Assembly (NCBI GenBank): GCA_965215565.1
Contig: CBDCDZ010000004.1
Location: 3,520,001-3,584,000 of the forward strand
Direction: 5' to 3'
From: Trueperaceae bacterium
Lineage (GTDB): Bacteria; Deinococcota; Deinococci; Deinococcales; Trueperaceae
Length of the DNA: 64,000 nucleotides
The position numbers were made by a program, and so were the translations under genes. Shown here piece after piece: positions 349 through 55,733 of the stretch. Within the stretch, counting starts at the first letter, position 1; the number at the start of each line of letters is the position of its first letter. The notes beneath the pieces were generated by a model. It was not told where the DNA came from, did no database searches, and worked only from the letters and a program-made list of their open reading frames with translations.

Positions 349-596
349 TAGCAGGTCTCAGCCGTTAGGCTAGCGGGGCTTCATCTGGTCTGAGTGCGCA
401 AAGCGATGCGAAGCAACACTCCTACTACGAAGAACATTGTTTGCTTCGCGAAAACTCCGTCCCTACGGGCTTTCAGACTGCTCGCTCACGCGAAGCAGCT
501 TTCAGAAATGTAGCGCGCACTTGATTGTGATGAGGTTCCGTTACAGCAAGCTGTGAAATCTGCGTTCGTTTGTCTCAGTATGTCGTAGAACTGCCG
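349..596 (+). mobile_element. Family A MITE-like element with four internal micro-inserts
   Basis: Starts TAGCAGGT, ends ...GTCTCAGTATGTCGTAGAACTGC; collinear with the 111-bp core once inserts are removed. Confidence 0.75.
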
Positions 597-928
597 TGAT
601 AAGGAGTCTCAGCCGTCAAGCTAGCAAAACCTCTGCCGAGTGCGAGAGGGCGCAAGGACGAACGCAAAGGCAAATGAGGTCAGGAGGTCTTGAGTCAAAC
701 ACGTTAAGCACGTTTCTATCAGGGTGCTCCGCTACGAGTAAGGGCTCGAGACCCAACGCGCTCTTTTCAGCGACGTAGACCCCTCTACGTCATCCTACGT
801 AGGGAGTCTTTTTCACGTCGTAGACGGCTTGCGTAAGCTAATTGACCCATGCGCCGTTCCCACTTTGCGCGCTATGCTTGGGCGCAGGACATGAGACAAC
901 GTTCGACGACTTGTTAAAGGAGCACCGC

Positions 929-1174
929 ATGGTTCAGTCTGCCCCTAAAATCCCTTCCTCCACTTCGTTCTCCCTACGCCCCGACAGCTTGACCTCGCGC
1001 GAGTACGAAGTGCTGAAGCTCATCGCGGAAGGGATGACGAACAAGCGCGTGGCGAGCGTGCTCGACATCTCACCGCGCACTGTGAGCACCCACCTCACGC
1101 GCATTTACGGCAAGCTCTGGGTGAGAGGGCGAACAGCGGCAGTGGTCAAAGCGGCGCGGTTAGGGTTGGTCTAG
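929..1174 (+). CDS. Stand-alone LuxR/GerE-type HTH regulator
   Basis: LTSREYEVLKLIAEGMTNKRVASVLDISPRTVSTHLTRIYGKL; AAGGAG RBS before ATG 929. Confidence 0.85.
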   Translation: MVQSAPKIPSSTSFSLRPDSLTSREYEVLKLIAEGMTNKRVASVLDISPRTVSTHLTRIYGKLWVRGRTAAVVKAARLGLV

Positions 1175-1218
1175 GAAGGTTCGGATGTAGGTACTTCTTC
1201 ATACGCTACACTGCGTTC

Positions 1219-1740
1219 ATGGTGAGAGCTGCGACACAAGCGGATGTTCCCAGTGTTGCCCGTGTCCACGTGCAGGCGTGGCGCGAAACCTATACAGGGC
1301 TCATCCCGCAAGAGGTATTGGACAACCTCTCGGAGGACGAACGAGCGGCGATGTGGCGCGGGGCACTGAGCGAGGGGAGCGCCACCCCTCTACTCGTCTA
1401 CGAACATGAAGGAGAGGTCATCGGTTTTGCCGCTACCGGACCGGAGCGGGAGAAGCACGCGCGCTACACGGGCGAACTCTACGCGATTTATCTTTTGCGA
1501 GAGTTTCACGGGTACGGCTACGGTAAGGCGCTCTTTCAGGAAGCAGTGCATTTGTTAGAAGCAGTGGGATATGACGCCATGCGGCTCTGGGTTTTGGAGG
1601 ACAATCCGGCGAGAGGCTTTTACGAACATCTAGGCGGCGAACTCCACGAGCGCAAAACCATCACGATGATGGGCGCAACCTTGAGCGAAGTCGCGTATAG
1701 CTGGTCCGAACTTCCTGCTTTGCCCCCGAATGAGCCGTGA
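1219..1740 (+). CDS. GNAT N-acetyltransferase
   Basis: VHVQAWRETY, ELYAIYLL..HGYGYGKAL and LWVLEDNPARGFYE motifs. Confidence 0.9.
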   Translation: MVRAATQADVPSVARVHVQAWRETYTGLIPQEVLDNLSEDERAAMWRGALSEGSATPLLVYEHEGEVIGFAATGPEREKHARYTGELYAIYLLREFHGYGYGKALFQEAVHLLEAVGYDAMRLWVLEDNPARGFYEHLGGELHERKTITMMGATLSEVAYSWSELPALPPNEP

Positions 1741-1778
1741 CGCTAAAGAGGTTGTAGGAAGGGGTCTTCTCGAGCCCC

Positions 1779-2378
1779 TTAAAGCTCAACCCGAAAGCTC
1801 AGCCCCTGGTCCACCCCTTCGGTATAGACGAGCGAAAAATTGTCGATGGTTGCGGTCCACGCGAAGGTGTCCTCGTTCAAGAAGCGCACTACGTTGGGGA
1901 GCAATTCTGGCGTGAGGTCGCCGTGGGCGAGCGTGATATGCGGGAGCCACCTTTCGGGGTGGTAGAGCGGATTAGGCTTGACGGCGAGGTCGGAGAGGGA
2001 ACTATAGAGCGAGCAGTGATAGTGAACGAGCTTGGGGCTACGCACGACAGGGATGTAGATAATCGGCTTAGGACCGGGGAAGATACCGAGCCCGGCGGTG
2101 CGAATGTGAAAGGGACGCCCCTCGTCGGCAACGCGCGCTAGGAGCGAGTGAACGCCTTCGTCGTCGAAGTCATTCGCGCCGTGATACGAAAAGTGCGGAA
2201 AGGGCGCGCTGTAGATGCTGCGCAGCCCGAACTCGCGTTCTAGCGCCGCCCATATCCCCCTCACCTTCTCGTCGTGCTTAGCGTCGAGTAACGAGACCAC
2301 CGCCTCGATGCCCGCGTCACCCCGTTTGCCTGCGGGTGTCTTAGGTTTCGGTCCGGCTAGTTCTCGGTCTAGGCTCAT
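1779..2378 (-). CDS. 2H phosphoesterase (2'-5' RNA ligase family)
   Basis: Two HxS/T motifs: PHFSY and PHITL. Confidence 0.8.
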   Translation of the reverse strand: MSLDRELAGPKPKTPAGKRGDAGIEAVVSLLDAKHDEKVRGIWAALEREFGLRSIYSAPFPHFSYHGANDFDDEGVHSLLARVADEGRPFHIRTAGLGIFPGPKPIIYIPVVRSPKLVHYHCSLYSSLSDLAVKPNPLYHPERWLPHITLAHGDLTPELLPNVVRFLNEDTFAWTATIDNFSLVYTEGVDQGLSFRVEL

Positions 2379-2539
2379 CAGAGTATCACTGTACCAGGTT
2401 GATGTACCGTAATACTAGGGGAATGAGGAACATTTCATTGCGATGTGAAGTCGTTTTGTGTAAGCGTCGTCCACATTCAATGTGACAGAGGCGCTTTTTT
2501 GCTCTCCAAATGGAAGAGGTGTTCTGGGCTTTCGGTTCC

Positions 2540-2965
2540 TCAGAGCATCTTTCTGTAGACGATTTCCCCCACGTTGTCATCGGCGATGTTCTCAATGATG
2601 CCGTTTGTGTGAAAACCCATGTGTACGTGCCAGCGTTGCGGGTCTAGCTCGTCGGTCTGGCTCGAGGACAAGAGCGCCACGTAACCGCGTTCTTTAAGTT
2701 CAGCCTCTAAAAAGCTCAGAAGAAGCCGCGACACACCTCTTCGGCGGTGTTCGGTTGAAACGAAGATCATGGCGAGAAAGGGTACGGTGCTCCACAGCAC
2801 GTCGAAGCGGAGATGACCGACAGTCAAGGTGGATTCTTCTAGCACCGCAACGATGACCTCCGAAGCGCTGATTTTGTGCTGCCAATCTTGCTCTCTAGTC
2901 CAGGGGTCAACCTCTTGAAGAAATGGGGTGTCGTCTCTTTGAGCGTAGCGAATAGTACAAGACAT
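2540..2965 (-). CDS. GNAT N-acetyltransferase
   Basis: IFVSTEHRRRGVSRLLL acetyl-CoA-binding motif A. Confidence 0.8.
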   Translation of the reverse strand: MSCTIRYAQRDDTPFLQEVDPWTREQDWQHKISASEVIVAVLEESTLTVGHLRFDVLWSTVPFLAMIFVSTEHRRRGVSRLLLSFLEAELKERGYVALLSSSQTDELDPQRWHVHMGFHTNGIIENIADDNVGEIVYRKML

Positions 2966-3032
2966 AGTGACCTCTTAATAATGGTGACCCCTTGATAGAT
3001 GAGTAATGCAGTTTGGCCCACCAACTCCGCGC

Positions 3033-5114
3033 TCAGTCCTCTTCACGCTGCACGAGCGTCAGAATCGTGTAGAGCGCCACTGCCTCCCCGTGCTGATTGG
3101 TGAGCCGCACGTCCCACGCCACCACGCCCGCCGCATATTTGTCGTCGTCGCGTTTGTCCTTTTTGATCTTCTGCTTCACGGTGAGTTGTGCCTGGATGGT
3201 GTCGCCGATGCCGACGGGTTCAACGAAACGCAAGTTATCTAAGCCGTAATTCGCCAAAACGGGCCCCGGTCTTGGGTCGACGAATAGACCCGCCGCCATT
3301 GACACCAAGAAGTAGCCATGCGCCACGCGCTTTTCAAACAAGGAGTCTTTTGCAGCAATTTCGTCTACGTGCGCGTAGAAATAGTCACCGCTCACGTTGG
3401 CGAAGTTCACGATGTCCGCTTCTGTCACGGTGCGGCGGTGGGTGAGGTAGGTTTCACCGATGGAGAGGTCTTCGAACCGCTTGCGGAAGGGATGGACCTC
3501 ATCGTGCGTTGTTTGTGCGCCTGCCACGTACTCCTTCGTCACGCTCATGAGTGTCGTCGGGTCCGCTTGAACGGCGGTGCGCTGCATGAAGTGTTTGATG
3601 GAGCGCGCGCCGCCCAGTTCTTCGCCGCCGCCCGCGCGTCCGGGTCCGCCGTGGACGAGGTAGGGTAAGGGCGAGCCGTGTCCAGTAGACGAGGCGGCGT
3701 TCTCGCGGTTGAGGACCAAGATTCGTCCGTGATGCGACGCTGCACCCAGCACGAGCCGCCGCGCCTCTTCGCGGTCATGCGTAATGGCGGAGGCGACGAG
3801 CGAGCCGCGTCCGCGCTTGGCGAGTGCGCCCGCCTCTTCTAATGTTTCATAAGGCATGAGCGTGGCGACGGGTCCGAAGGCCTCGACCTCATGAGGTTCT
3901 AGGGCGTTTAGCGGGTCCTCACAGAGGAGTAGCGTCGGCGGGTAAAAGCCGCCCTTCTCAGCGTCGCCGCCGTGAAGCTCGAGCCTGCCCTCGAACACCA
4001 CTTCACAAGAGGTGCGCAGCCTCTTTACGCTCCGCCCCACCGCGTCGCGCTGTTCCGCGCTTACTAAGGGACCCATGCGCACCTCGTCGCATTCAGGGTC
4101 GCCCATCGTCACGCTATTAAGGCGCTGGCTCAACGCTTCTGTCACCGCCTCCACCTTATCTTTCGGTACAATGACGCGGCGAATCGCGGTGCACTTCTGT
4201 CCCGCCTTGACCGTCATCTCCCTCGAGACCTCTTTGATGAACAGTCCAAATTCCTCATCGCCAGGCTGGACGCTCTCGCCCAAGATGCAGGCGTTTAAGG
4301 AATCTGCCTCGAGCGTAAAGGGCACCGCCTTATCTATGATATTTGGATGCGCCTTCAGCTTCTTGCCCGTTTCAGCGGAGCCTGTAAAGGTCACGGCGTC
4401 CTGTTCATTGAGATGCGGCAAGAAGTCTACGATGTCGCCCGCGAGGAGTTGTATGGACCCCTCCGGCAAAAGGTTCGTCCGCACCATCTCCTGAAACATC
4501 GCCACCGCCAAATAAGAGGTCTGCGGCGCAGGTTTAATCACTGCTGATACGCCAGCGAGAAAGGTGGGCGCGAGCTTTTCCAGCATCCCCCAACAGGGAA
4601 AGTTGAAGGCGTTGATATGGACCGCCACGCCCTCTTTCGGCGTCAAGAGGTGACGCGCTGTAAAGGTGCCGTCTTTAGAAAGAGGGAGCGCCAGACCCTC
4701 GGTCAAAAAGGTCTCATTGGGGAATTCGCGGCGGACGAGGCTCGAGTAGGCGAAGAGCGTCCCGATGCCCCCCTCGATGTCGATCCAGCCGCCCCGCCGC
4801 GTCGTTCCCGTTTTGAATGAAACTTCGTAAAAGCGCTCTTTGACGCTCATGAGGTGTTTAGCGAGTTCTTTGAGAATAAGGGCGCGTTCGTGGAAGGTCT
4901 GTCTGCGCAAGTTGGGACCGCCGACGTCCCTGGCGTAGTGCAGTGCGCCTGCAATGTCGAGACCGTCTGTCGTGAGGTGGGTGATAGGTTTGCCGTAGAC
5001 GGCGTCTACAACCTCTACGCCGTCACCCGCGCCCTCTTGCCACTCGCCTGTGATGAAACTCGGGAGTTTGCTTGTGAGCGCTGAATCTAAAGGATGTCCG
5101 CTGAGTTGAGCCAT
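3033..5114 (-). CDS. paaZ: Bifunctional aldehyde dehydrogenase / MaoC hydratase PaaZ
   Basis: INAFNFPCWG, EADSLN, KAGQKCTAIRR, HGGPGRAGGGEELGG, and a C-terminal MaoC domain (RVAHGYF, LANYG). Confidence 0.93.
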   Translation of the reverse strand: MAQLSGHPLDSALTSKLPSFITGEWQEGAGDGVEVVDAVYGKPITHLTTDGLDIAGALHYARDVGGPNLRRQTFHERALILKELAKHLMSVKERFYEVSFKTGTTRRGGWIDIEGGIGTLFAYSSLVRREFPNETFLTEGLALPLSKDGTFTARHLLTPKEGVAVHINAFNFPCWGMLEKLAPTFLAGVSAVIKPAPQTSYLAVAMFQEMVRTNLLPEGSIQLLAGDIVDFLPHLNEQDAVTFTGSAETGKKLKAHPNIIDKAVPFTLEADSLNACILGESVQPGDEEFGLFIKEVSREMTVKAGQKCTAIRRVIVPKDKVEAVTEALSQRLNSVTMGDPECDEVRMGPLVSAEQRDAVGRSVKRLRTSCEVVFEGRLELHGGDAEKGGFYPPTLLLCEDPLNALEPHEVEAFGPVATLMPYETLEEAGALAKRGRGSLVASAITHDREEARRLVLGAASHHGRILVLNRENAASSTGHGSPLPYLVHGGPGRAGGGEELGGARSIKHFMQRTAVQADPTTLMSVTKEYVAGAQTTHDEVHPFRKRFEDLSIGETYLTHRRTVTEADIVNFANVSGDYFYAHVDEIAAKDSLFEKRVAHGYFLVSMAAGLFVDPRPGPVLANYGLDNLRFVEPVGIGDTIQAQLTVKQKIKKDKRDDDKYAAGVVAWDVRLTNQHGEAVALYTILTLVQREED

Positions 5115-5240
5115 GCCTTATGGTACTCGTATGAACTCTTGCAGATACCGCGCTGTAGGTTGAAGGGGACACTGCTCGAGTCGCTAAGTTGGTGCGCCTC
5201 TACGAAATAAGAGGTTGCAAGCTCACCTTGCAACCTTCCG

Positions 5241-5352
5241 TAGTGGTTCTAAGTCGAGTGCTGCTGTGTACTCCCTCCGCTGTCTCAACGTAGTGAACAA
5301 GGGGTTGAAACCCCTTGCTTTGACACTAGCGTCATTCCAAATAGAACCACTA
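5241..5352 (+). mobile_element. Family B 112-bp MITE-like element
   Basis: TIR TAGTGGTTCTA...TAGAACCACTA; central palindrome CAAGGGGTTGAAACCCCTTG; similar copies at 10680 and 21985. Confidence 0.75.
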
Positions 5353-5409
5353 CCCAACCTCTTATAGTTCGTTTTGTTGCCTTTCAACCGCTCGAGGCGC
5401 ACTAAACGG

Positions 5410-9890: not shown

Positions 9891-10098
9891 AAGACTCCTT
9901 CAATTTTTGGTGGTTCATGGACGCCGAGTTGATGCTGAATCAGAATGCTGCCCACAGGTTGCGTGTTGCGTCAACCTATTACAGAAATATACATACCAAA
10001 TGCGCTACCGAAAGATTGTCCGGTAGCGCGAATAGCAGGTCTGATCGCAGACTCGGTTGGTAGGTGCAGCGCTGCTAAAGTTGTCGCTCTATAAAATA

Positions 10099-10233
10099 TA
10101 GCAAGTATCATTTGGTTTGAGCCAGTCTCACGTTAGAGAACTTGGGCGAACACGCACATTCTTAAATGAGATCCCGCTAGTTCTTCGAACTGAGACTTGC
10201 GCTATTTCAATTCAGTACTTCTGTGAATTGCTT
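10099..10233 (+). mobile_element. Family A element (111 bp core plus 24 bp net insert)
   Basis: TATAGCAAGTATCATTTGGTTTGAG start; insert at 10170-10194; closely similar to 12771-12881. Confidence 0.8.
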
Positions 10234-10255
10234 TAGTGTCCATGGTGTCCAGAAA

Positions 10256-10546
10256 CTAGTTAAGGCTCGGCTGTAGGGCGCGAAGCTCTAAACTGTTTGG
10301 GTGGTCGTGGCGGGCCCAGCTCGAGATAACCACCTCGAGCCTCTTCCACGAGGTGCAGTGCGTCACTTCGTTGTAAACGCAGCCGCAGTACAGTACACTC
10401 GCTTGACTCTGGTAAAGGCTGTGGAGCTTGGTGTAAAGGTGCGGACACCCCGCTTCGGCTCGCCAATAGCCCGAGATGCGCCCTGGCCGAACCATGAGCA
10501 AACCCAGACCCATAGAGCCTGACAAAGTCGCTTTTTCCCCCTGCAT
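10256..10546 (-). CDS. Small hypothetical protein, Cys/His-containing
   Basis: 96-aa ORF with AAGGGGGA RBS 4 nt before ATG; no family recognised. Confidence 0.45.
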   Translation of the reverse strand: MQGEKATLSGSMGLGLLMVRPGRISGYWRAEAGCPHLYTKLHSLYQSQASVLYCGCVYNEVTHCTSWKRLEVVISSWARHDHPNSLELRALQPSLN

Positions 10547-10679
10547 ACGTTCCCCCTTTTGTTCCGCTAAACCTTACGTTCAGTATAAAAGATGTGGGGT
10601 TATGAGAAGGGCGTCGGCTTTACAGAGCGAATTGAGCGAAATGTTGAGGGGTGTCGGTTCTACCTCATGCCGATTCTGG

Positions 10680-10791
10680 TAGTGGTTTCAAGTCGAATGC
10701 TGCCATGTGCTCCTTCTGCTATCTCTATGTAAGGAATAAGGGGTTGAAACCCCTTGCTTTGACATCAGCATCATTCTAGATAAAGCCACTA
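10680..10791 (+). mobile_element. Family B 112-bp element
   Basis: TAGTGGTTT...AAAGCCACTA ends, same AAGGGGTTGAAACCCCTT core and same length as the 5241 copy. Confidence 0.75.
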
Positions 10792-11433
10792 CCCCGATTC
10801 TTTCTGTAGGACCTGACTGTAAAGCATTCCCAAGCGCCTACGGTGAGTCTGGCGAGGGCTTAGCGCCTGTTTTTCAAAGTGAGGTGCCGGGTCAACGAGC
10901 GCACGAGCTTGCATATCGGTCTGCCAGTTGAAAAAGCCGTAGAGCAAGCGGAGCCAGAGCAAACTGTGGAGGCGTCGAAGAGGGTCTTGCGGAATGCAAA
11001 AGTCGGCGGTGTACCAGACGCCTCCCGGCTCCAAGCGCTGCGCGAGTTTAGGGATGAGGTAACCTAGCTGCGTTTCCGTAAAAACGTCCAAAAAGAAGAG
11101 TGTGACGATGAGGTCATAGCGCCGCGCGGGGTAGTCGAAGGTGAGGGCGTCGGCGTGATGAAAGGTGACTTGGGACTGTGCGCGCAAGTTCGAGCTTCGC
11201 TTCTGCGCCAGCTTCAACATCTCCAAGCTCTTATCCACACAGTCGATCTGAGCGTAAGGATTGACCTCCAAAAGCTGCGCCAAAAAACGCCCGTCCCCTT
11301 CGCCTAAGATAAGTACACGCTCCGCATCTGTAAGTTCATCCAAAAAGGCGGTGCGGGTGCGCGTGAGGTCAAAGCCGAAGGCTAGGCGCTCGAGCAGCCG
11401 ATAAGGTCGCGCTAAGCGGTCGAAGCTCCTCAC
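10789..11433 (-). CDS. Class I SAM-dependent methyltransferase
   Basis: VLILGEGDGRF motif I, CVDKS, HADAL, YDLIVTLFFLD. Confidence 0.88.
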   Translation of the reverse strand: MRSFDRLARPYRLLERLAFGFDLTRTRTAFLDELTDAERVLILGEGDGRFLAQLLEVNPYAQIDCVDKSLEMLKLAQKRSSNLRAQSQVTFHHADALTFDYPARRYDLIVTLFFLDVFTETQLGYLIPKLAQRLEPGGVWYTADFCIPQDPLRRLHSLLWLRLLYGFFNWQTDMQARALVDPAPHFEKQALSPRQTHRRRLGMLYSQVLQKESG

Positions 11434-11441
11434 GTCTTCGC

Positions 11442-12529: not shown

Positions 12530-12640
12530 TAGCAGTTCCATAACCTATTGAGACAGATAAGCGCAGATATCATCTCTGAAAGTGCGTGCCAAACAATAAC
12601 TTACTTAGTGAGCGTGTCTCTGACCAGATGATACCTGCTA
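12530..12640 (-). mobile_element. Family A element, 111 bp, no insert
   Basis: TAGCAGTTCC...CCAGATGATACCTGCTA, exactly 111 bp. Confidence 0.82.
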
Positions 12641-12770: not shown

Positions 12771-12881
12771 TAGCAAGTATCATTTGGTTTGAGCCAGTCT
12801 CACGCTGGAGAACATCGACGAGCACGCACACTCTTAAATGATACTTGCGCTATTCCAATTCAGTACTTCTGTAAATTGCTT
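12771..12881 (+). mobile_element. Family A element, 111 bp, no insert
   Basis: TAGCAAGTATCATTTGG...AAATGATACTTGC...AAATTGCTT. Confidence 0.82.
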
Positions 12882-12927
12882 TATTTCGTGCTTCTTTCCA
12901 AAAGGAAGTTTTGTTCGCCCCATATTT

Positions 12928-13038
12928 TAGCAGTTCCGAGACATACTGAGACGGATGAGCGCAGGTATCATCATCGAATGTGCGTGCTAGACGTCGTTTT
13001 ATCTAGTGGGCGTGTCTCAAACCAGATGATACCTGCTA
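12928..13038 (-). mobile_element. Family A element, 111 bp, no insert
   Basis: TAGCAGTTCC...GCAGGTATCATC...CAGATGATACCTGCTA. Confidence 0.82.
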
Positions 13039-16709: not shown

Positions 16710-16841
16710 TAGCAGGTATCATCTGGTCAGCTACACTCTTACTGAAAAGAACATCGCCTAGCACGCACTTTCAAAGATGATATCTGCGGAGAAGTGTTGC
16801 TTCGCATAACTTCGTTCAAGCAATGACAAGTGGAACTACTA
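16710..16841 (+). mobile_element. Family A element (111 bp plus 21 bp insert)
   Basis: TATAGCAGGTATCATCTGG...GTGGAACTACTA; insert after ATCTGCG. Confidence 0.8.
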
Positions 16842-16942: not shown

Positions 16943-17053
16943 TAGCAGGTATCATCTGGTCTAAGACACTCTCACTGTAGAAAACACTGTTCAGTACGCA
17001 CATTCAGAGATGATACCTGCGACACTCTGTCTCAGTATGTTTTGGAAGTGCTA
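16943..17053 (+). mobile_element. Family A element, 111-bp reference copy
   Basis: TAGCAGGTATCATCT...AGATGATACCTGC (perfect 13-bp internal IR)...GGAAGTGCTA. Confidence 0.85.
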
Positions 17054-21931: not shown

Positions 21932-21984
21932 GGCGTCGGCTGCATAGTTATGAACTAGAGAAGCGCGAAGTGTGAAGTGAGAGG

Positions 21985-22086
21985 TGGCGGCTCTACCCGA
22001 AATGACATTGATGTCCGAGCAAGGGGTTTCAACCCCTTGTTCACCGTACCAAGATAGCAGAAGGAGCAAGCAGCTTAGAACTGCTA
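21985..22086 (-). mobile_element. Family B element, degenerate (about 102 bp)
   Basis: GCAAGGGGTTTCAACCCCTTG core and AGATAGCAGAAGGAGCA match the 10680 copy in reverse. Confidence 0.65.
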
Positions 22087-22212: not shown

Positions 22213-22323
22213 TAGCACTTCCAAAACATACTGAGACAGAGTGTCGCAGGTATCACCTCACAACGTGCGTGCTAAACAGTGTTTTCTACAGTGAGGGTGT
22301 CTCAGACCAGATGATACCTGCTA
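22213..22323 (-). mobile_element. Family A element, 111 bp
   Basis: Near-identical reverse complement of 16943-17053. Confidence 0.85.
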
Positions 22324-35833: not shown

Positions 35834-36257
35834 TAGCGGTTATCAGAAGTAAAGCAGTGCACAGAAGTACTGAATTGGAATAGCGCAAGTCTCAGCCTGC
35901 TAAGGCTAGCGGGATTTCATTCTCAAATGTGCGTGCTGCTTTCTGAAAGCCCGTAGGGACGAAGTTTTCGCAAAGCGAATGACGTAGTTTGCCGTTAGGC
36001 AACGGTGTTCTACATCGTGAGAGCGTTGCTCCGCTTACGAAGTTTCCCTTTCGCAGATGCGAAAACGGTGTAACCGGGAAAAACTTATGTACACTCAAAC
36101 CAAATGATACTTGCTATATTGGACCGAAATAGCGCAGATTTCACAGCTTTGCTGTAACGGAACTTCATCCGACAATGTGCGTGCTAGTTGTCGTTCTATC
36201 ATGTGAGACTGGCTCAAACCAGATGAAGTCGCGTGGGCGCTCCCGCTGGACCTGCTA
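35834..36257 (-). mobile_element. Family A element (outer copy), split by a nested Family A copy
   Basis: 35834-35851 plus 36119-36257 rejoin into one element collinear with the core; TA on both outer flanks. Confidence 0.75.
35852..36116 (-). mobile_element. Family A element (inner copy) with three micro-insert blocks
   Basis: AAGCAGTGCACAGAAGTAC...CAAATGATACTTGCTA, flanked by TA at 35850-51 and 36117-18. Confidence 0.8.
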
Positions 36258-36446
36258 TATAGCGTAGCCGCTAATGACTTGATGAGGGAGAGGTGTGTGC
36301 GAGGAAACCTTGTGACAACGCGGCTGACTTTAGCGCTACGCTACACCTCTGTAAATAACCGCGTGACATGCTGACATGTTGCAAAGGACGCGCGCCGCTG
36401 GGGGCTTTTGGGGAGGTGGCGAAACGGAACGCTCGAGGAGAGACAC

Positions 36447-38284: not shown

Positions 38285-38435
38285 TTCTTTCTCCTTGTCC
38301 TTGCATGTTAGGCAGGACCTCTTCGACGTTTCATAACTTTTGAGTTCTCGGATTGAGCAGATTGTCCAGGAGAGATTTTAAGGCTCGAGCCTCAGTGAAC
38401 CCCACTATCTGACCAGATGAAACCCGCTACGCAGA

Positions 38436-43130: not shown

Positions 43131-43136
43131 ATTACC

Positions 43137-44524: not shown

Positions 44525-44534
44525 GCCCCGTTCC

Positions 44535-44723
44535 CTAACCTTTGCCTTTCGCCTCATCCTCTTCTTGCGTCTCCCGCATATCTTCGCGGATATCCTCTTC
44601 GCTCACGCCCGCGACGTCCTCTAGAGTTTCGTCATTCTCCAACACCTTATCCTGCGCCCCGTAGCCGCTCTCGAAAGTGAGTTCGTGGTCGTCATCTTGA
44701 TTGTTCTGCCTATCGTCGTTCAT
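44535..44723 (-). CDS. Small acidic hypothetical protein
   Basis: GAGGTG RBS; D/E-rich 62 aa. Confidence 0.6.
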   Translation of the reverse strand: MNDDRQNNQDDDHELTFESGYGAQDKVLENDETLEDVAGVSEEDIREDMRETQEEDEAKGKG

Positions 44724-44819
44724 CTTGCACCTCTTTAGGGTCTTCTCAGTTTCGTTCAGTCTGCTCTAAATTTCGGCGGCTCACCGTGACGCTAGCATAA
44801 AAGGGGAGAGGTTGAGCGC

Positions 44820-46085: not shown

Positions 46086-46180
46086 GCGCGTTCCGCCGAC
46101 ATCGACATGAGAACTAGCCTACCTCACGTTCGTCAGAGGCAATGATGGACTGCGTACAAGAGGTCGAGGTAGCACATTTT

Positions 46181-46270
46181 TAGAGGCGGGTCTGGGACCC
46201 GCCTCTACTCAGGGTTACGTTTTATGCTCGTTCGAACATGGCGCTTAGAGGTGATTCATGAATCACCCCT
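46181..46270. repeat. Two REP-like palindromes
   Basis: TAGAGGCGGGTCTGGGACCCGCCTCTAC (GTAG on minus strand) and GGTGATTCATGAATCACC. Confidence 0.5.
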
Positions 46271-46279
46271 TCTGTGACC

Positions 46280-48880: not shown

Positions 48881-49146
48881 CTTAATTCCTTCTCTGAATG
48901 GAACGAAAACGTAAGCCGAGGCGAACGGTTGCCCTCAGCTCGAGCGTGCGAGTCTTCCCCTCTTCAAGGCGCAATACATAGAGAGATGAGATGTGGTCCT
49001 ATTGTAATGAACACTTAATGATAGAAGGTGAGAAGGCGCGTATGCGCCCAAGAATTTCACAGGTTCTATAGACCCTATAGGCGTGCTGGCTTCAGAGGAG
49101 ACAGCTTAGGAACGCCCTGGCGCTACACGGTTCACTGCGCCCGAAC

Positions 49147-49737
49147 CTATCTCGAGCGCGGCAGGTACTTCTCCCAAATCGGATCGATGCTCGGCAAGAT
49201 GCCGTACGCCGAGGAGAACATAAAGCGCGGCGCGTAGGGTTTGCGCTTGAGGGCCATCTTCGCCTCTTCGGGCGTGCGGTCGCGTTTTTTCGCGTTGCAG
49301 CGGTGGCAGCACGCCACCACGTTCTCCCAACTCGTGCCGCCGCCCCGACTGCGCGGCAGCACGTGGTCGAGCGTGAGGTCGCTGCTCTTCTCGAAGCAAT
49401 ACTGGCAGGTGTGATCGTCGCGGCGAAAGACGTTTTTGCGGTTAAACGCGACGCGGTGACGCGGCGGACGCTTCACGTACTTCTTGAGGCGAATCACGCT
49501 CGGCACCACGAAAATTTGGCTGGGCGAGCGCAGCACGCGCGCGCTGTCCTCGACGCGCTCCGCCACCTCGTGCATGAGGAGCGCCACCGCCCTTTTGACC
49601 GAGCACACGTGCAGCGGCTCGTACGACGCATTGAGAATCAGCACCCGCGTCGCGTTGACGTTCGCGATGGGGCTGAGGGCGTCCAAGTCCTCGTCGTAGG
49701 CGAAGGGGTCGAGCGCGTGGATGTGCTCCAAATCCAT
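49147..49737 (-). CDS. HNH endonuclease (McrA-like)
   Basis: VLILNASYEPL, RDDHTCQYC, TLDHVLPRSRGG, CHRCNAKK. Confidence 0.92.
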   Translation of the reverse strand: MDLEHIHALDPFAYDEDLDALSPIANVNATRVLILNASYEPLHVCSVKRAVALLMHEVAERVEDSARVLRSPSQIFVVPSVIRLKKYVKRPPRHRVAFNRKNVFRRDDHTCQYCFEKSSDLTLDHVLPRSRGGGTSWENVVACCHRCNAKKRDRTPEEAKMALKRKPYAPRFMFSSAYGILPSIDPIWEKYLPRSR

Positions 49738-49973
49738 GTTGTCCAGATCGTTCGCGGCGGCGGTGCCTCCTAAGTTGGATATAAGCCCAGTATAACCTAA
49801 AAATCTTCAGGTGAATATCAGGGGGAGGTGAGGAATACATGAAGAGGTCGTCAGGGTGACGGTCTTCGGTACAGGTTTGAACAGGAGCTTCCACGCTTGC
49901 ACATTAAGCTCGAGGCTTGATTTCAGTAACTGAGCGCAGTCTCGAGCACTTGAAACGTGAGACCGCTAAGATA

Positions 49974-50171
49974 TAGCAGGTATCATCTGGTCAGCTTGGG
50001 CGAAGCCATTCCCGGAGGGAAACTTCGTAAGCGAAGCAACGCTCTCACTAAAAAGAACATCGCCTAGCACGCACGTTCGGGGATGAAATCCCGCTATTGC
50101 TGCGCAATGAGATTTGCGGAGAAGCGTTGCTCCGCATAACTACGTTCAAGCAATGATAAGTGGAACTGCTA
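49974..50171 (+). mobile_element. Family A element with three micro-inserts
   Basis: TATAGCAGGTATCATCTGG...GTGGAACTGCTA; backbone closest to the 16710 copy. Confidence 0.8.
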
Positions 50172-50225
50172 ATAGTCGTGCCGGTCAAAGCGTTACCTCT
50201 AGCTCGCGGCACCCTCCAATAGATG

Positions 50226-50336
50226 TAGCACTTCCAAGATATACTGAGACGGAGTGACGCAGATATCATCTCCTAATGTGCGTGATAGACGGCGCTTTTC
50301 AAAGTGAGAGTGTCTCTGACCAGATGATACCTGCTA
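50226..50336 (-). mobile_element. Family A element, 111 bp
   Basis: TAGCACTTCC...CAGATGATACCTGCTA. Confidence 0.83.
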
Positions 50337-50376
50337 ATGGATACCACCGCGACTTAGCTGCGTCGCCCAACAGTAA

Positions 50377-50403
50377 AGACGGCTGCTTACGTGGCAGCCG
50401 TCT
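50377..50403 (-). terminator. Probable pdxS terminator
   Basis: AGACGGCTGC-7nt-GCAGCCGTCT perfect stem with a short T run on the minus strand. Confidence 0.55.
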
Positions 50404-50445
50404 CGAGTGACTCCTTCTGAATTGCTTCTAAGGGTAAATAGCGCG

Positions 50446-51336
50446 TTACCAACCCCTCGCCGCCAAAAGCTCCTCTTCTTTCAGGTCAGGAATATTAATC
50501 CCCACCATCGCCTCGCCCAAGTCGCGCGAGACTTCCGCCAAGATGTCGGGGTTGTCGTAGTGCGTCACCGCCTTGACGATGGCTTGTCCGCGCTTGACCG
50601 GATCGCCCGACTTGAAAATACCCGAGCCAACGAACACGCCGTCCACGCCGAGTTGCATCATCAAAGCGGCGTCGGCGGGCGTGGCGACGCCCCCAGCGGC
50701 GAAGTTCACAACAGGCAAGCTGCCGTTTTCGTGGATGTACACGACGAGTTCATAAGGTGCTTTGAGGTCTCTGGCGGTGGTCATCAACTCTTCGCGGGGC
50801 AGGTTCTGAATGCGGCGAATCTCGCCCATGATGGTGCGGGCGTGGCGCACCGCCTCGACGACGTTGCCCGTGCCCGCTTCACCCTTCGTGCGAATCATCG
50901 ACGCGCCCTCCCCGATGCGGCGAAGCGCTTCGCCCAAGTCTTTCGCACCGCACACAAAGGGCACGGTGAAAGCGTGCTTGTCGATGTGGAAGCTCTCGTC
51001 GGCGGGCGTCAACACTTCGGACTCGTCGATGAAGTCCGCGCCAAGCGCCTGCAAAATCTGCGCCTCGACGAAGTGCCCGATGCGCGCTTTCGCCATGACT
51101 GGAATCGAGACCGCCCCCAAAATTCCCTCGATCATGCTCGGGTCAGACATCCGCGCGACGCCGCCCTGGGCGCGGATGTCGGCAGGCACGCGCTCTAACG
51201 CCATCACCGCCGTCGCGCCCGCATCTTCGGCGATGCGCGCTTGCTCCGGGTCAATCACGTCCATGATGACGCCGCCCTTAAACATCTCGGCGAAGCCGGT
51301 TTTGATTCTCAGTGAGCCGATCATGGTTTCTGGCAT
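50446..51336 (-). CDS. pdxS: Pyridoxal 5'-phosphate synthase lyase subunit
   Basis: [41 protein letters not shown]. Confidence 0.97.
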
Positions 51337-51650
51337 GGTGTTCCTCCGCAGGGTTCTCTGGTTCTATAGTCTACATCGCTATGGAAAGCGTGTTCGGCTC
51401 TAAAAGGTTAGCCGTTGAGTAAAGACGTTTCATTATACTCCGCGAGGTTCCGCTTTGCAGGTATTCGAGGTCTCTTTTAGATTAGATTGGCGCTCTTTAG
51501 AGGTCTTTCGGGACTAGGTTGAACACATGCACGCACTTGAGCACCCTTTTCATCTCGAAATATAGTGTTACGCGCGTGCGCTACGTTTCCCTCGAGGTTC
51601 GCTGTGACGTTTTCGGCGTCCGAGCGGCGCGGCTCGTCTATGCTGTTCTC

Positions 51651-52013
51651 ATGCGACTTCACACTGACTACCTCTTGCGCATCCGTCAGAGCGTCCTGTT
51701 GAGAGCGAGGGTGCTGCGGCTCGAGCTGTACTTCCCCAAGCCGCGCAGGGGCACGGACCACCTGCTCATTGCGCTCAACGGCAGCAAAGAAAACGTCTTG
51801 AGAATCCCCAACTACCTCTTCGACACGTTCGAGAAAATCGACATCGAACTGATTCGCAGTGAGGAGACAGATGGCGTGTACCGCATCCTCCTGGCGGTCA
51901 CTAAAAAACTTGACGCGCAAGGTTCAACCCCTTCTGAAAAGCGGAGCAAGTTGCAGCGGCGCATGTGGCGCGAAGCTGACCTCGAAAAACCGACGCAGCG
52001 CCTTAATGTATAA
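51651..52013 (+). CDS. Hypothetical protein
   Basis: Host-like codon usage; ATG 51651 follows TATGCT. Confidence 0.6.
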   Translation: MRLHTDYLLRIRQSVLLRARVLRLELYFPKPRRGTDHLLIALNGSKENVLRIPNYLFDTFEKIDIELIRSEETDGVYRILLAVTKKLDAQGSTPSEKRSKLQRRMWREADLEKPTQRLNV

Positions 52014-52078
52014 CTAAATGTAAAGATGAAAATTTTTACAGAAGCCCGTCTCTGACGAGCTTTGTGTTAGGTTGGGTC

Positions 52079-52960
52079 ATGGCAAACATCAGTATTTTAG
52101 GCATCCCGATGGACCTCGGCGCGGGGCGGCGCGGCGTGGACATGGGGCCGAGCGCGATTCGCCTGGCGGGGCTCGAGGCGAGGCTGAAGCGTTTAGGCTA
52201 CAGCGTGCAGGATTTAGGCAACATCGAGGTTCCGGTTGCCGAAGCGCTGCAGAATAAAAATGGGCTGCACTACGCAGACCCCATCCGTGAGACGTGCGCC
52301 GCTGTCTACAGGGAGCTTCGCAGCGTATCGAAGGACAGTTTCCCCATCGCCTTGGGCGGCGATCACTCCGTGTCGATGGGTACGGTGGCAGGCGTCGCGC
52401 AACAGGGGCGCACGGGCGTCATCTGGATCGACGCCCACGCCGACCTCAACACGCCCGCGACGAGTCCGAGCGGCAACGTTCACGGGATGCCCTTAGCGCA
52501 CCTTTTAGGCTACGGCGACGAGAGGTTTTTAGACCTCTGGGGCGGCGGCGCTGCGCTGCGCCCCGAGGACGTCGTCTTCATCGGGCTGCGCAGTTTGGAC
52601 CCGGCGGAGCGCTCCCTCATTCGCGAGCATGGCATCAGGGCCTACACGATGAAAGAGATCGACGGGCGCGGCGTCGCGGAGGTCGCGGCGGAGGCGCTAG
52701 CGCATCTCCAAACGGAGCGGCTGCACGTCTCCTTTGACGCGGACGTGCTGGAGCCGAGCCTCGCGCCCGGCGTCGGCACGCCCGTCCCTGGCGGGCTCAC
52801 CTACCGCGAAGCGCACCTCTTGATGGAACTCTTGGCGGACGCCGAGCGGGTCACCAGCCTCGATTTGGTGGAAGTCAATCCGATTTTAGATGTGAAGAAC
52901 GAAACGGGGCGCATCATGGTGGAGATGGCGTCCAGCCTCTTGGGGCAGGCGATTCTTTAG
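52079..52960 (+). CDS. rocF: Arginase
   Basis: GVDMGP, GGDHS, DAHADLN, SGNVHGMP, SFDAD, VEVNP. Confidence 0.95.
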   Translation: MANISILGIPMDLGAGRRGVDMGPSAIRLAGLEARLKRLGYSVQDLGNIEVPVAEALQNKNGLHYADPIRETCAAVYRELRSVSKDSFPIALGGDHSVSMGTVAGVAQQGRTGVIWIDAHADLNTPATSPSGNVHGMPLAHLLGYGDERFLDLWGGGAALRPEDVVFIGLRSLDPAERSLIREHGIRAYTMKEIDGRGVAEVAAEALAHLQTERLHVSFDADVLEPSLAPGVGTPVPGGLTYREAHLLMELLADAERVTSLDLVEVNPILDVKNETGRIMVEMASSLLGQAIL

Positions 52961-52966
52961 GGAATC

Positions 52967-53917
52967 CTAAGCTTGGCGTAGCGGCACGCTGAAGCCAAAT
53001 TCGTTGCCGTTCTCTAGCGCTCTGCCCCACGCCTGCCCGCCCCAGCGCTGCGCAATCGAGCGGACGATGTAGAGCCCTAAGCCGGTGCCTCGCGCTTTGG
53101 CGGACCCCCTCGAGTGCGGCTCGAAGAGCGTCTCGGTGGTCTCTTGACCGAGCGGCGTCCCCTCGTCGCGCACGCGCACGTGCACCGCGCCGTCTCGCTG
53201 CGCGGCGCTCAGATAGACGACCGCGTTGTCGGGACCGTGGATAGCGGCGTTTTCCAAGAGGTTGATGAGCACCTGCAAGAGCTTGTCGGCGTCGGCTAAA
53301 ACAGTGAACGCGGGCACCTCAAGCTCGACCTTCACACGGTGCTCCTTGAAGGTGTCGCGCAGCAGCGACAGCGCCTTAATGGTGACTTCGTAGAGGTCCA
53401 GCGAGCGCAGCTTAGGCGGCTTAACGTCCACCGTAAGGTCGCCAAGAAGCCGCACCAAGCGTTCGGTTTCGCCCTCCGCGCGCTCTAAAAAGCGGGTGCG
53501 CTGCGCGTCGTCCATCTCGAAGTGGAGCGCCTCTAGCGTCGAGCGAATTGTGGTGACGGGCGTGCGCAGTTCGTGAGACAAGACCGCTAGGAGTTCGCGG
53601 GCGTTCTCCTGGGCGCGGCGCATCTCCGAGAGGTCATGAAGCGTTAGCACGCCGGGCGTCGCGCTAGCCCGCAGGACACGCCCCCGCGTGGTCAACTCCA
53701 ACTCGCCCTGCTCCAAAAAGACGCGCTCGAGCCTGTGGTCACGCACCACCCCGATGAGTGGCAGCCCCACCGCGTAATTCGGCGCGACCTCTAAAAACGT
53801 CGCCGCCGCCCGGTTGAGGTAGCGCACCCGCCCCGCTTCGATGAACAAAACCCCTTCAGCGAGGCTGTCTAACCAGTCCGCTCGGGGGGGCGCAGCCAAG
53901 AGGACGCTCGCGCTCAG
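52967..53917 (-). CDS. phoR: PhoR-like histidine kinase lacking TM segments (start uncertain)
   Basis: PAS-like DSLAEGV..YLN, SHELRTP, NLLENA, GTGLGL; follows a phoB-like gene and lies next to phoU. Confidence 0.75.
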   Translation of the reverse strand: MSASVLLAAPPRADWLDSLAEGVLFIEAGRVRYLNRAAATFLEVAPNYAVGLPLIGVVRDHRLERVFLEQGELELTTRGRVLRASATPGVLTLHDLSEMRRAQENARELLAVLSHELRTPVTTIRSTLEALHFEMDDAQRTRFLERAEGETERLVRLLGDLTVDVKPPKLRSLDLYEVTIKALSLLRDTFKEHRVKVELEVPAFTVLADADKLLQVLINLLENAAIHGPDNAVVYLSAAQRDGAVHVRVRDEGTPLGQETTETLFEPHSRGSAKARGTGLGLYIVRSIAQRWGGQAWGRALENGNEFGFSVPLRQA

Positions 53918-54579
53918 AAAGACCCCGCCAGACGGTAGCCGCGCCCGCGCACCGTCTCGATGAGGTCCGCGCCGACGAGCGAGCGGAGCTGCGCGACGTG
54001 CTGGTCTACAGTGCGCTCGGTGCCCAAAAAGTCCTCGCCCCACACGCGGTCTAAGAGTTCGGTGCGCGAAAAGACGCGCCCCGGATGCGCACTTAAAAAG
54101 GCGATGAGTTCGAACTCGCGCCGCGTCAACTCCAGGCGCTCGCCGCCGTAGTGGACCGTGCCTTGCCGCTCGTCCACCTCCAAGCTGCCGACTTGATGTT
54201 TGCGGTTAGGTTCGGTGCGGCGCAGAAGTGCCCGGAGCCGCGCCACGAGTTCGGCCGCCGAGAAGGGCTTGGCGAGGTAGTCGTCCGCGCCCGCATTCAG
54301 CCCGGCGACCTTGTCCGCTTCGCTCGCCCTGGCGGTCAGCATCAAGACGGGGAGGTGCTTGCCTCCAGCGCTCGAGCGCAGCCGCTGCAACCACGTCACC
54401 CCCGACTCGTCGGGCAGCATCCAGTCGAGCACCACCAAGTCCGCCCCGTTGAGTTGCTCCCACGCCGCCTCCGCCGTCGCCGCCTCGGAGACCTTAAAGC
54501 CCGCTTGCGCGAGGTGAAACGCGAGCAGTTCGCGCACCGCGTCCTCATCCTCCACCAGGAGAATCTGAGCGCTCGTCAC
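53914..54579 (-). CDS. phoB: PhoB-like response regulator
   Basis: LDWMLPDESG, MLTAR, GADDYLAKPFS, RTVDQH, TVRGRGY; divergent from phoU. Confidence 0.8.
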   Translation of the reverse strand: MTSAQILLVEDEDAVRELLAFHLAQAGFKVSEAATAEAAWEQLNGADLVVLDWMLPDESGVTWLQRLRSSAGGKHLPVLMLTARASEADKVAGLNAGADDYLAKPFSAAELVARLRALLRRTEPNRKHQVGSLEVDERQGTVHYGGERLELTRREFELIAFLSAHPGRVFSRTELLDRVWGEDFLGTERTVDQHVAQLRSLVGADLIETVRGRGYRLAGSF

Positions 54580-54634
54580 CTTGTGAGCCCTTTTGTTGGC
54601 CAGAGTAGCATAGACCTATTCTAACGCCAGGGAG

Positions 54635-54660
54635 GTCACGGCGAAGTCATGGGAAGGTCA
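54635..54660 (-). promoter_or_regulatory. Candidate Pho box of phoB
   Basis: GTCA at 54635, 54646 and 54657 (11-bp period); TAGAAT follows on the minus strand. Confidence 0.6.
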
Positions 54661-54843
54661 GGGCTACGCTCTGTCAACTCGGGTTAATTCCTATAAGAAT
54701 TAACCGAAAACGGTATAAGGCGTTTCCAACACCTTTTCTTTTCTCGAGCATTCTAGCGCGCCGTTCAGTTACGCTCAGCAATTTGAAAAGTACCCTGTAT
54801 AAGAAGAGTACGTCCCTTCAGAACGGCTTTCTTGGTCCTGCCC

Positions 54844-54874
54844 TGACACCCCACTGACATCTTCACGCCATACT
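54844..54874 (+). promoter_or_regulatory. Candidate Pho box and -10 of phoU
   Basis: CTGACA twice (TGAC at 54844 and 54855), then CATACT 7 nt before ATG. Confidence 0.55.
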
Positions 54875-54881
54875 TGTGAGC

Positions 54882-55538
54882 ATGTTACGCTCTGAGACCA
54901 TGAACGCACTCGACCAGAACCTCCAGGAGATAGGCGCGTCTATCGTGCGTATGCTCTCGTTCGTGCGCGAATCGTGCGAGCTGGCGGAGCGCGCGCTGCT
55001 CCACGCCGACGTGGGCGCAGCCGAACGCTGCGCCGAAAACGACGTGCTCATCGACGAGTTGCAAGAGGAGTTGGAGCAGCGCATCCTCACCGTCATCGCC
55101 CGCCGGCAACCCGCCGCGACGGACCTGCGCTTTTTGGGCGCGATCCACCGCTCTTTAGCCGACATCGAACGCGCGGGTGACTACGCCGAGCACGTCGCGC
55201 GCGCAGGCGCGGAGCTAGCTGACGCGCCGCCCCTCAAGAAGTACACCGACATCGAGCGCATCTTTGAAATTTTAGAGGAGATGATCGAGAAAACGAGCAA
55301 AGCCATCGCCGAATCCGACGTGGCTGTGGCGAGAGAAGCCTGGGCGATGGACGAAGAGATCGACGACCTCTACGAGCAGATTCAGCGCGAGCTTTTGACC
55401 TACATGATGGAAAACCCCAAAGCGATCACGCGGGCGCTGAAGCTGCTCGAGGTCGGGCGCTATCTAGAGCGCTTCGGTGACCATTTGGAAAACGCCAACG
55501 AGCACGTGATTTTTTGGCTGACAGGGGAGAGGATTTAG
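54882..55538 (+). CDS. phoU: Phosphate signalling protein PhoU
   Basis: IARRQPAATDLR, DIERAGDYA, DEEIDDLY, YLERFGDH. Confidence 0.95.
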   Translation: MLRSETMNALDQNLQEIGASIVRMLSFVRESCELAERALLHADVGAAERCAENDVLIDELQEELEQRILTVIARRQPAATDLRFLGAIHRSLADIERAGDYAEHVARAGAELADAPPLKKYTDIERIFEILEEMIEKTSKAIAESDVAVAREAWAMDEEIDDLYEQIQRELLTYMMENPKAITRALKLLEVGRYLERFGDHLENANEHVIFWLTGERI

Positions 55539-55557
55539 CGCTGAGCAAGTTTAACTA

Positions 55558-55733
55558 TAGCAAGTATCATTTGGTTTGAGACGCTCTCACGATGTGGAAC
55601 ACCATGCAGCACGCACATTTGAGAATGAAATCCCGCTCTCAGGCGAAGCCGTCCCGCTAGGCTTTGCCTGAGAGCGGGATGGCTACGGCTGAGACTTGCG
55701 CTATTCCAATCAGTACTTATGTTAACTGCTGTA
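55558..55733 (+). mobile_element. Family A element with a 65-nt compound hairpin insert
   Basis: TATAGCAAGTATCATTTGG...; insert 55629-55693; ends ...TTAACTGCTGTA. Confidence 0.8.

Follow-up and report, generated by a model that had tools for sequence, protein, structure and literature searches.

The 64,000-nt stretch analysed here (the window) belongs to the chromosome, G000:C4, of the 4.49-Mb genome of a Trueperaceae bacterium (G000). It contains many copies of a 111-bp transposable element of the miniature inverted-repeat kind (MITE), the host in what follows, and several of these copies carry a hairpin cassette of about 24 nt (range 22–26 nt), family A, which replaces the single central T of the motif ATGA-T-AYYTGC. 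An earlier note on this DNA had described eight such inserts and proposed that they are a very small sequence-targeted mobile unit. All eight exist at the coordinates given below, each where the empty motif has a single T. Family A is a real, recently active, site-specific mobile hairpin, and one of at least six insert families that reside in the MITE, rather than the single kind of unit first described.

The first host copy of the window (349–594, plus strand, right end approximate) contains four inserts, two of which belong to family A: one in the terminal arm (357–380, minus), with a 3-bp GCC/GGC stem and a 4-nt loop, and one of the CAGC/GCTG type in the inner arm (534–557, plus), with a T-A outer pair. 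The inner arm of the copy at 10099–10232 (plus) is filled by a GTTC/GAAC cassette (10170–10194, plus). Two adjacent copies, 35853–36116 and 36118–36258 (both minus; the right end of the latter is cut by the neighbouring copy), have inner-arm cassettes of the GCCT/AGGC type (35891–35916, minus) and the CAGC/GCTG type (36140–36164, minus). The copy at 49974–50171 (plus), with ATA duplicated on both sides, holds a TTGC/GCAA cassette in its inner arm (50087–50111, plus). In the copy at 55558–55731 (plus, right end approximate), the insert at 55629–55693 does lie in the inner-arm motif but is not one unit: it consists of three nested family A units in alternating orientation, an outer one (plus), a middle one (55638–55680, minus) inside the CT-A-G of the outer unit, and an innermost one (55651–55672, plus) inside the CT-A-G of the middle unit. 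The remaining insert (36227–36249, plus), in a terminal arm, replaces the same central base but belongs to a second family, E. This insert lacks the YTA-hairpin-TGAR form. Of the two terminal-arm inserts named earlier, only the one at 357–380 is of family A.

Other host copies of the window are empty: 12530–12640 (minus, 111 bp), 12771–12880 (plus), 12928–13038 (minus, 111 bp), 16943–17053 (plus), 22213–22323 (minus) and 50226–50336 (minus). The motif is also empty in the copy at 16710–16841 (plus), with CTA duplicated on both sides. A host terminal arm at 38407–38430 (plus) contains only the head of a family A cassette, and is likely a deletion product. A similar unit at 608–630 (minus) had been taken to lie outside a host; it is degenerate and family-A-like. 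Its surroundings, which align to the host with a score of 2 at best, may be the decayed left end of a host, and it gives no evidence of insertion outside the host.

The host is non-coding and has inverted TAG...CTA ends, plus an inner inverted copy of the left arm; a folding computation indicates that the arms pair with each other in the folded single strand. It has 541 nhmmer matches genome-wide, and 130 of 208 full copies are flanked by a 3-bp target duplication (9 after shuffling). Inverted ends, target duplication, absence of coding sequence and mobility, the defining traits of MITEs, are all found in it. Indeed, the host moves, since at most of the places where two congeners have it, G000 has none (16 syntenic pairs were read). 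A comparison of filled and empty orthologues showed that host positions are mostly not common to the species; in one orthologous pair the locus L051 is filled and the G000 copy is empty and decayed, which is suggestive only as a filled/empty orthologue. The genome has 510 occurrences of ATGATAYYTGC, the motif in its empty form, compared to 10–22 with A, C or G as the central base. The left-end motif of the host is present in 7 of 41 relatives searched and in 4 of 5 further genomes, spread over several other genera of the family. Family A is confined to one genus, and the empty motif is therefore older than the cassette (ancestral).

No transposase with ends matching the host was found. Elements with TAG...CTA ends do exist, which we take to be of the IS5 type from a reading of their proteins. 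IS630 was considered as the host mover and rejected: there are only relics, one of them split by a host copy. Like the bacterial MITEs ERIC, Correia and RUP, as described in the available part of PMC2229807, the host is a non-coding element of about 110 bp with inverted ends, a target duplication and hundreds of intergenic copies. It departs from them in that the duplication is of 3 bp, outside TAG...CTA ends, and not TA, that the ends are bipartite and covary from one subfamily to the next, that the left arm has a further copy inside the element, and that no matching transposase could be found. The left end of the host also forms tandem arrays with a period of 22–36 nt (L093 in G064, contigs of G054, and G000:C4 1994360).

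The simple family A cassettes are 21–26 nt long. On the R strand (the orientation of the earlier note, the T strand being its complement) they read RRYY-CCG-Y-T-A-stem-loop-stem-T-G-A-R, with a stem of 3–4 bp and a loop of 3–4 nt. An outer Y-R pair is followed by a T-A pair, a bulged G and an A-T pair, which is an A-A mismatch in the AGAG type. TGA had been reported at both ends; the right end is in fact variable, and the most frequent type of the inner arms, with 38 of 91 inserts, has AGAG there. Of 45 distinct types, 25 have a GNA or GNNA loop when read on the T strand, one has it on the R strand and 19 have it on neither strand. According to the text available for PMC13037366, such loops give very stable, nuclease-resistant DNA mini-hairpins.

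The proposed covariation of the stems is clear. In the 45 distinct types, defined by context rather than by fold, 124 of the 135 cells of stem positions 1–3 are Watson-Crick pairs, compared to a mean of 55.5 and a maximum of 79 in shuffles. A pair count on 24 sequences gave 96.5% of 144 cells paired, with 35 double changes, a level that none of 500 shuffles reached; slid registers gave 17–45%. Two type-count measures of the same pair counter were not above shuffles (386 and 96 of 500). The outer Y-R pair is Watson-Crick in all of 120 context-defined inserts (88 C-G and 32 T-A; 93 from G000 and 27 from relatives' loci, some overlapping). Beyond these 120, the exceptions are 3 of 52 listed matches in the relatives G001 and G002 (two T-G, one C-A) and two nested C-A in G000. 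The switch between C-G and T-A may rest on few events.

A hairpin-aware scan by fold alone gave 144 family A matches in the genome, compared to 2, 5 and 3 in three order-5 Markov control genomes. These matches lie in inner arms (88), in terminal arms (20), inside other family A units (26) and elsewhere (10); of the last, eight were judged by eye to lie in degenerate host or nest contexts, and two do not exceed the background. None of the 144 matches is thus a credible family A insert away from host arms and family-A-like units. The targets have only TANNKG in common, and so short a sequence cannot explain the targeting because the chromosome has 39,809 such sites. In host context, only G000 (82 matches), G001 (20) and G002 (32) have family A in abundance. 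These three carriers belong to one genus; G001 and G002 are 96–97% complete. Fourteen other genomes out of 121 have one or two matches each, which is the control level. The single exact cassette type that was searched in GTDB matched one Trueperaceae record only, and five metagenome matches to the cassette all lack the host context.

The distribution of the inserts was compared with the relationships of the hosts. From 459 candidate left ends, 304 hosts were aligned (identity of at least 72%, at most six gaps), 91 with an inner cassette and 7 with a terminal one. On a host tree built from about 104 columns, site columns dropped, the insert state of the 91 filled hosts changes 73 times (shuffles: mean 79, minimum 70), counts which serve as a guide only since the tips are poorly resolved. 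By comparison, a clonal control, the tail trait, requires 4 changes for 38 hosts, and backbone single-nucleotide polymorphisms of like frequency have a median of 0.24 changes per carrier. Young clusters of near-identical hosts contain up to four cassette types beside empty copies, and the insert state differs in 37 of 90 host pairs with at most two backbone differences. Insert presence is therefore polyphyletic.

The flanks follow the host and not the cassette. Over eight proximal sites, filled hosts have 1.0 mismatch to the nearest empty host (n = 60; 0.94 in empty controls, n = 153) and 3.5 mismatches to same-type copies in distant hosts. One 52-nt composite is found in 11 host clusters, and hosts whose copies of it agree in every letter can differ at as many as 32 backbone sites; its flanking bases match the nearest empty host in 21 of 21 cases at −6 (6 nt left of the site) and in 19 of 21 at +2 (2 nt right of it), where 10.5 and 14.5 are expected if unlinked. 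For all filled hosts, these positions are host-type in 50 and 53 of 60 cases (27.1 and 33.4 expected), about as in the empty control. Because the insert state is near random on the tree and the −6 and +2 bases follow the host, the cassette is gained repeatedly and site-specifically, by neither clonal descent nor long-tract conversion. Loss cannot explain the scatter because 196 of 213 empty inner arms hold T at the central base.

The two arms draw on different pools. Short-stem GGC/GCC types make up 20 of 20 terminal inserts, compared to 5 of 88 inner ones (p = 2e-17), and both doubly filled full hosts carry different types in their two arms. Terminal inserts are therefore not copies of the inner insert in their own host; one-ended chimeras between arms were looked for as well, and none was real. 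Hosts with the same type are closer than chance (22.1 compared to 30.1), and some types, such as GCC3 (3 changes for 8 hosts), are clustered in host subfamilies. Thus the inserts are not a single clade, the terminal ones are not explained by conversion from the other arm, and the stems covary: none of the three outcomes set in advance against a mobile unit occurred.

The junctions are asymmetric. On the T strand one junction is invariant: the base of the hairpin, where the cassette begins, directly follows a T. The opposite junction is fixed in hosts and loose by 1–2 nt in nests. In hosts the head has 4 nt, with a purine first in nearly all cases. The central T is lost in all host-context copies of G000, where no head with T kept was seen; it is kept in two nested contexts. 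Among 50 matches read by eye there was no host-context site lacking the central base, and there were no empty donor joints. Copying would leave neither heads with T kept nor sites without the central base, in contrast to cut-and-paste. The G or A found at some empty sites was examined as a possible excision footprint: most cases are missed inserts, and the remainder, about 7 G (several of one lineage) compared to 5–6 C, are too few. Nested insertions hit at least six different outer types and two loop sites, and 1–4 flank bases are altered at their junctions; some of these match the flank of another outer type, and they read like short copying past the cassette end. Cargo of up to about 40 nt is carried along with the cassette. 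By inspection, without statistics, the transcription context of the cassettes showed no clear pattern.

A family-A-like unit with the GCTAAAGC hairpin lies in a different composite repeat (G000:C4 543767, 3952921, 2388766, 1593180 and 440936; L186), and a copy of family A is in turn nested within this unit.

At least five more insert families use the host, at host positions 22/23, 47/48, 75/76 and 88 and inside family A. They are hairpins of 17–27 nt at fixed host sites, nested in one another, and mostly GNA mini-hairpins. In the window, the first host copy has a 21-nt insert with two mini-hairpins at host position 22/23 (394–414, plus) and nested inserts at about position 48 (442–510, plus, bounds approximate). 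A 21-nt insert occupies position 88 (16798–16818) of the copy at 16710–16841, nested inserts of other families occur at 35938–35996 and 36027–36093 in the copy at 35853–36116, and the copy at 49974–50171 has further inserts at 49997–50038 and 50128–50148. These families co-occur in the same host copies above chance. Two of them, placed on the host tree, gave 61 and 62 changes (shuffle means 69.8 and 72.8). The base lost to family A is also the one lost to family E, of which 8 were counted; E has TAGCGG in common with A and is further present in another host repeat, related to the first. A bulged hairpin with a TACCCGC start, family F, enters one base further on than family A. Examples of E and F are found at window 36227–36249 and at G000:C4 272806, 593140, 589055 and 3605445.

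An IS110 element uses the motif too. Its seven near-identical copies (near G000:C4 638904, 681817, 1227201, 1291182, 2530389, 3106709 and 4136505; L005–L009, L068) all lie in the terminal-arm motif, with the core TC doubled and the target base kept. Its left end is structured (z = −3.5), has guide-like matches to both halves of the motif and, judged from its sequence, looks like a bridge RNA aimed at the host motif. Families E and F and the IS110 occupy the same 2–3 bases as family A, which is expected of a site that is recurrently cut or bound. IS110 homologues in G002, G055 and G064 aim at the same motif family in shifted registers, and four relic IS110 left junctions are fused to host bodies.

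The tentatively favoured explanation is a homing-like spread, in which a trans-acting enzyme cuts the empty motif and repair copies the cassette from a filled copy. The enzyme would cut at T^A; the freed 3' end, GCARRT, would anneal to AYYTGC of the donor and be extended across the hairpin and at most 5 nt beyond. The extended end would then return to the recipient, where the unpaired terminal T would be trimmed, leaving the donor purine in its place, and filling, which abolishes the motif, would protect the site from being cut again. The fold would act as single-stranded DNA, as the GNA/GNNA loops suggest, either bound by the enzyme or protecting and compacting the template. The single-stranded state is inferred, as are the cut and the enzyme that would make it. 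A filled copy as the template is favoured because the T is lost in register, the arms are sorted, cargo is carried and the flanks are untouched; filled-to-empty conversion at one site is a pattern that would fit a homing element. A wider proposal seems doubtful: a gene-less homing system in which 24-nt hairpins and their cargo are written into the motif of another mobile element by a cut-and-copy enzyme, with at most 5 and 1 bases of matching flank needed and recipient flanks untouched, in which the same enzyme class drives the small dispersed repeats of many phyla, and in which a filled motif shields the MITE from IS110.

Several observations do not sit well with homing. No site-specific endonuclease was identified among the Y1, Y2, GIY-YIG, DUF559 and tyrosine recombinase proteins, and GATAYY hexamers are not avoided in the genome (ratios 0.92–1.19). 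The 19 types without a GNA loop on either strand include the commonest, CAGC, and folding energies separate neither the strands nor DNA from RNA (17 of 38 each). A replichore test gave 63 of 134 copies (p = 0.55, on a weak skew), hence no bias. The T is kept with a 3-nt head at two loci of relatives (L034, L050), which fits plain insertion. Within clusters, inserts at different sites occur together (27 cases observed, 18.4 expected), a hint of co-transfer or of permissive loci, and ordinary conversion between near-identical hosts in young clusters is invisible to the flank test. Pure break repair leaves the retention of the outer Y-R pair and of the bulge unexplained. Finally, the first nested insertions had almost no homology, so that a homology-free step must also be involved.

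A passive conversion without a dedicated nuclease, rather unlikely in our view, supposes that diverged hosts pair, that hairpins loop out past mismatch repair and that point mismatches are corrected to the recipient, so that any stable hairpin spreads. It agrees with the other insert families being about as scattered on the host tree, with the arm-specific pools, the closeness of same-type hosts and the co-occurrence of inserts, with the presence of MutS in all three genomes of the genus and with the failure to find a mover. However, it requires a repair that always favours the recipient and yet spares the loop, and short-patch NucS was not found in any of the three genomes. It cannot create nests in at least six outer types and two loop sites, it does not explain the invariant T^A junction or the bulge, and insert-type combinations are only weakly shared between distant hosts (37 compared to 27.8, p = 0.04). 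Inheritance of a few old insertions with arm-to-arm conversion, the cassette being immobile, would account for the types that cluster in host subfamilies, such as GCC3, but it is scarcely credible: it is contradicted by the scatter on the tree, the host-specific flanks, the disjoint arm pools and the nesting, and loss cannot restore the T of 196 of 213 empty inner arms.

The other alternatives invoke known enzymes. A peel-and-paste by an HUH (Y1) enzyme, as for IS200/IS605 and repetitive extragenic palindromes (REPs), would excise the folded single strand as a tiny circle and join it into T^A. The bulged hairpin, the absence of target duplication and the exact join between target 3' and cassette 5' ends fit the 5'-phosphotyrosine chemistry described in the accessible text of PMC8266576; GCTA/GTTA lies 5' of the stem where REPs have GTAG, and the T is kept at the two loci of relatives and in two nested contexts. 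This route is nevertheless improbable. A conservative insertion would keep the target base, which is lost in all G000 host-context copies, and a free circle is disfavoured because it would predict a kept T, donor joints and no sorting by arm; Y1 was not found in G001 or G002, the sole G000 match lies within a restriction-modification protein, and there is no replichore bias. Movement of the cassette in trans by the resident IS110 bridge recombinase is still less probable, even if its seven copies in the terminal-arm motif have the doubled TC core and the guide-like matches to both motif halves, TC is found at both family A junctions and 9 letters are common to the IS circle joint and the head of one cassette. 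Direct top-strand transfer has been reported for an IS110, in what could be consulted of 10.1101/2025.10.25.684509. However, the base beside the core survives in none of 93 G000 copies and its replacement covaries with the cassette, whereas the IS keeps its target base, and the commonest cassette head lacks TC. G001 has family A but only a homologue with 47% identity and another joint, whereas family A is missing from G055 and G064 (0 and 1 non-hairpin match), whose homologues are close and have a joint that is identical or differs by one letter. The distribution of the IS110 clade does not track that of family A. All seven intact copies are in terminal arms and most cassettes in inner arms, and the IS621 cut positions, as given in the part of PMC11208158 at hand, produce the family A junction only with extra repair. 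As a last route, an RNA copy of the cassette might be reverse transcribed at a nick, as has reportedly been proposed for cyanobacterial repeats. One exact and one loose junction are the pattern of target-primed reverse transcription, and G001 has four reverse transcriptase genes of the group II intron type. This is very unlikely: G000 and G002 have no match to the reverse transcriptase domain, the G001 genes have no link to the host, the loops are of the DNA-type GNA and not RNA tetraloops, and the sorting by arm is unexplained.

The enzymes were sought by a loose first look, which distant enzymes may escape, and a visiting enzyme may have left. Of the movers suggested earlier, Y1 or RAYT transposases, reverse transcriptases and an IS110 clade, none is common in close form to all three carriers. 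The Y1 domain PF01797 has one match in G000, which lies in a restriction-modification protein of 1322 aa and is bordered, in frame, by a repeat of another kind; it was not found in G001 or G002. The reverse transcriptase domain PF00078 has no match in G000 or G002; the four G001 copies (L149–L152) end beside a stretch that looks, on the opposite strand, like another intron's last domain. PF04986 (IS91-type Y2) and PF07592 (ISAzo13) gave no match, but the controls were equally blank, so that these blanks show nothing. Tyrosine recombinases number 6–10 per genome, and one neighbour was read. A small GIY-YIG gene common to the genus was rejected as a candidate: its locus is of the housekeeping type, and although the adjoining hairpins resemble cassette heads, the chromosome has 36 such inverted repeats. 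DUF559 was not found in G000.

Some observations were made on the way. At L001, the Y1 domain within the restriction-modification-like protein is bounded in frame by a palindromic repeat (NKGLKPL peptide), which is also intergenic in the window (5240–5355, 10679–10794 and 21983–22044). DUF559 genes occur in G064 (6), G002 and G001, and the small GIY-YIG genes of G002 and G064 are flanked by palindromic repeat families of their own (L130, L131, L141–L148). In the G000 chromosome, about 15 palindromic hexamers are very strongly avoided (ratios 0.01–0.2), which suggests a long exposure to many restriction systems.

The likeness to the small dispersed repeats (SDRs) of cyanobacteria, already noted earlier, stands. 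Elhai et al. reportedly described in 2008 eight families, SDR1–8, of 21–27 nt, whose fold is kept by compensatory change and which nest in their own copies and in minitransposons. Family A resembles them, above all SDR4, SDR5 and SDR6, in size, compensatory fold, exact insertion into a short motif, nesting and residence in a minitransposon, and also in the coexistence of several families, the narrow lineage and a mover that is unknown in both cases. Unlike the SDRs, it occurs in another phylum (in a Trueperaceae-type genus) and another motif, one target base is replaced rather than kept, and its loops point to DNA and not RNA; the arm-specific pools, the cargo and the host-specific flanks were measured for family A. 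The comparison is by description and not by sequence, and the GTDB search, made with one exact cassette type, found no occurrence in Nostocaceae or at HIP1 sites. In the Nostocaceae, SDR5 is 21 nt long and is inserted between bases 3 and 4 of HIP1, according to the available text of papers citing the original description (PMC4390886, PMC5861425, PMC3116915, PMC13756078).

The cassette is not a REP, not a derivative of IS200/IS605 or IS110, and not itself a MITE. It shares with REP/REPIN-RAYT systems and IS200/IS605 ends a short bulged hairpin, a tetranucleotide 5' of the stem and the absence of target duplication, as far as the parts of PMC8266576 and PMC3733652 that could be seen describe them. 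It differs from REP/REPIN by GCTA/GTTA instead of GTAG, by a T^A rather than C|T junction and by the lack of a RAYT gene flanked by hairpins, and from REPs and IS200/IS605 by its confinement to the motif of another element and the loss of the target base. Elements of the IS110/IS621 type are known to target repeats, from the portions available of PMC11208158 and of a preprint on ISPpu10. Family A uses the same motif as the resident IS110 and has the core dinucleotide TC, read on the target strand, at both junctions, except in the AGAG type; unlike these elements, it encodes no recombinase or bridge RNA, its junction is not conservative, and its ends do not match the IS donor. The terminal inverted repeats and target duplication of MITEs are absent from the cassette.

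In homing introns and inteins, filled alleles convert empty ones at one exact site by double-strand-break repair, and the site is thereby lost. Family A has in common with them the filled-to-empty direction at one exact site and the loss of the site. It differs in having only about 24 nt, no coding capacity, no endonuclease found and almost no co-conversion of the flanks, and up to about 30% of backbone sites are different between a donor and its recipient. No published description of family A was found, in a literature that included few subscription papers and no supplements; text searches of the accessible parts of PMC3184786, PMC10969869 and PMC6006769 returned nothing relevant.

How elements of less than 30 nt move has been an open question from the first description of the cyanobacterial repeats onwards. 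The mechanism is limited here by about 130 copies, in about 300 hosts that could be aligned: the junction is exactly T^A, one base is replaced, flanks are kept within 5 and 1 nt, cargo is tolerated and donors are sorted by arm. These constraints are better than any we have seen for small dispersed repeats; they separate copy-in from cut-and-paste and define donor and target oligonucleotides with which the enzyme can be sought. A dedicated enzyme, should there be one, would write short DNA into a chosen site with almost no homology. If there is none, hairpin-biased repair alone could create selfish DNA, which bears on the evolution of repeats.

Elsewhere in the window, the only Rfam match is the 16S rRNA gene, whose 3' part lies at 63126–64000 on the minus strand. 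A region with a small gene of the LuxR helix-turn-helix type is found at 785–1175 and has a second copy at G000:C4 1044593, both just behind a host MITE.

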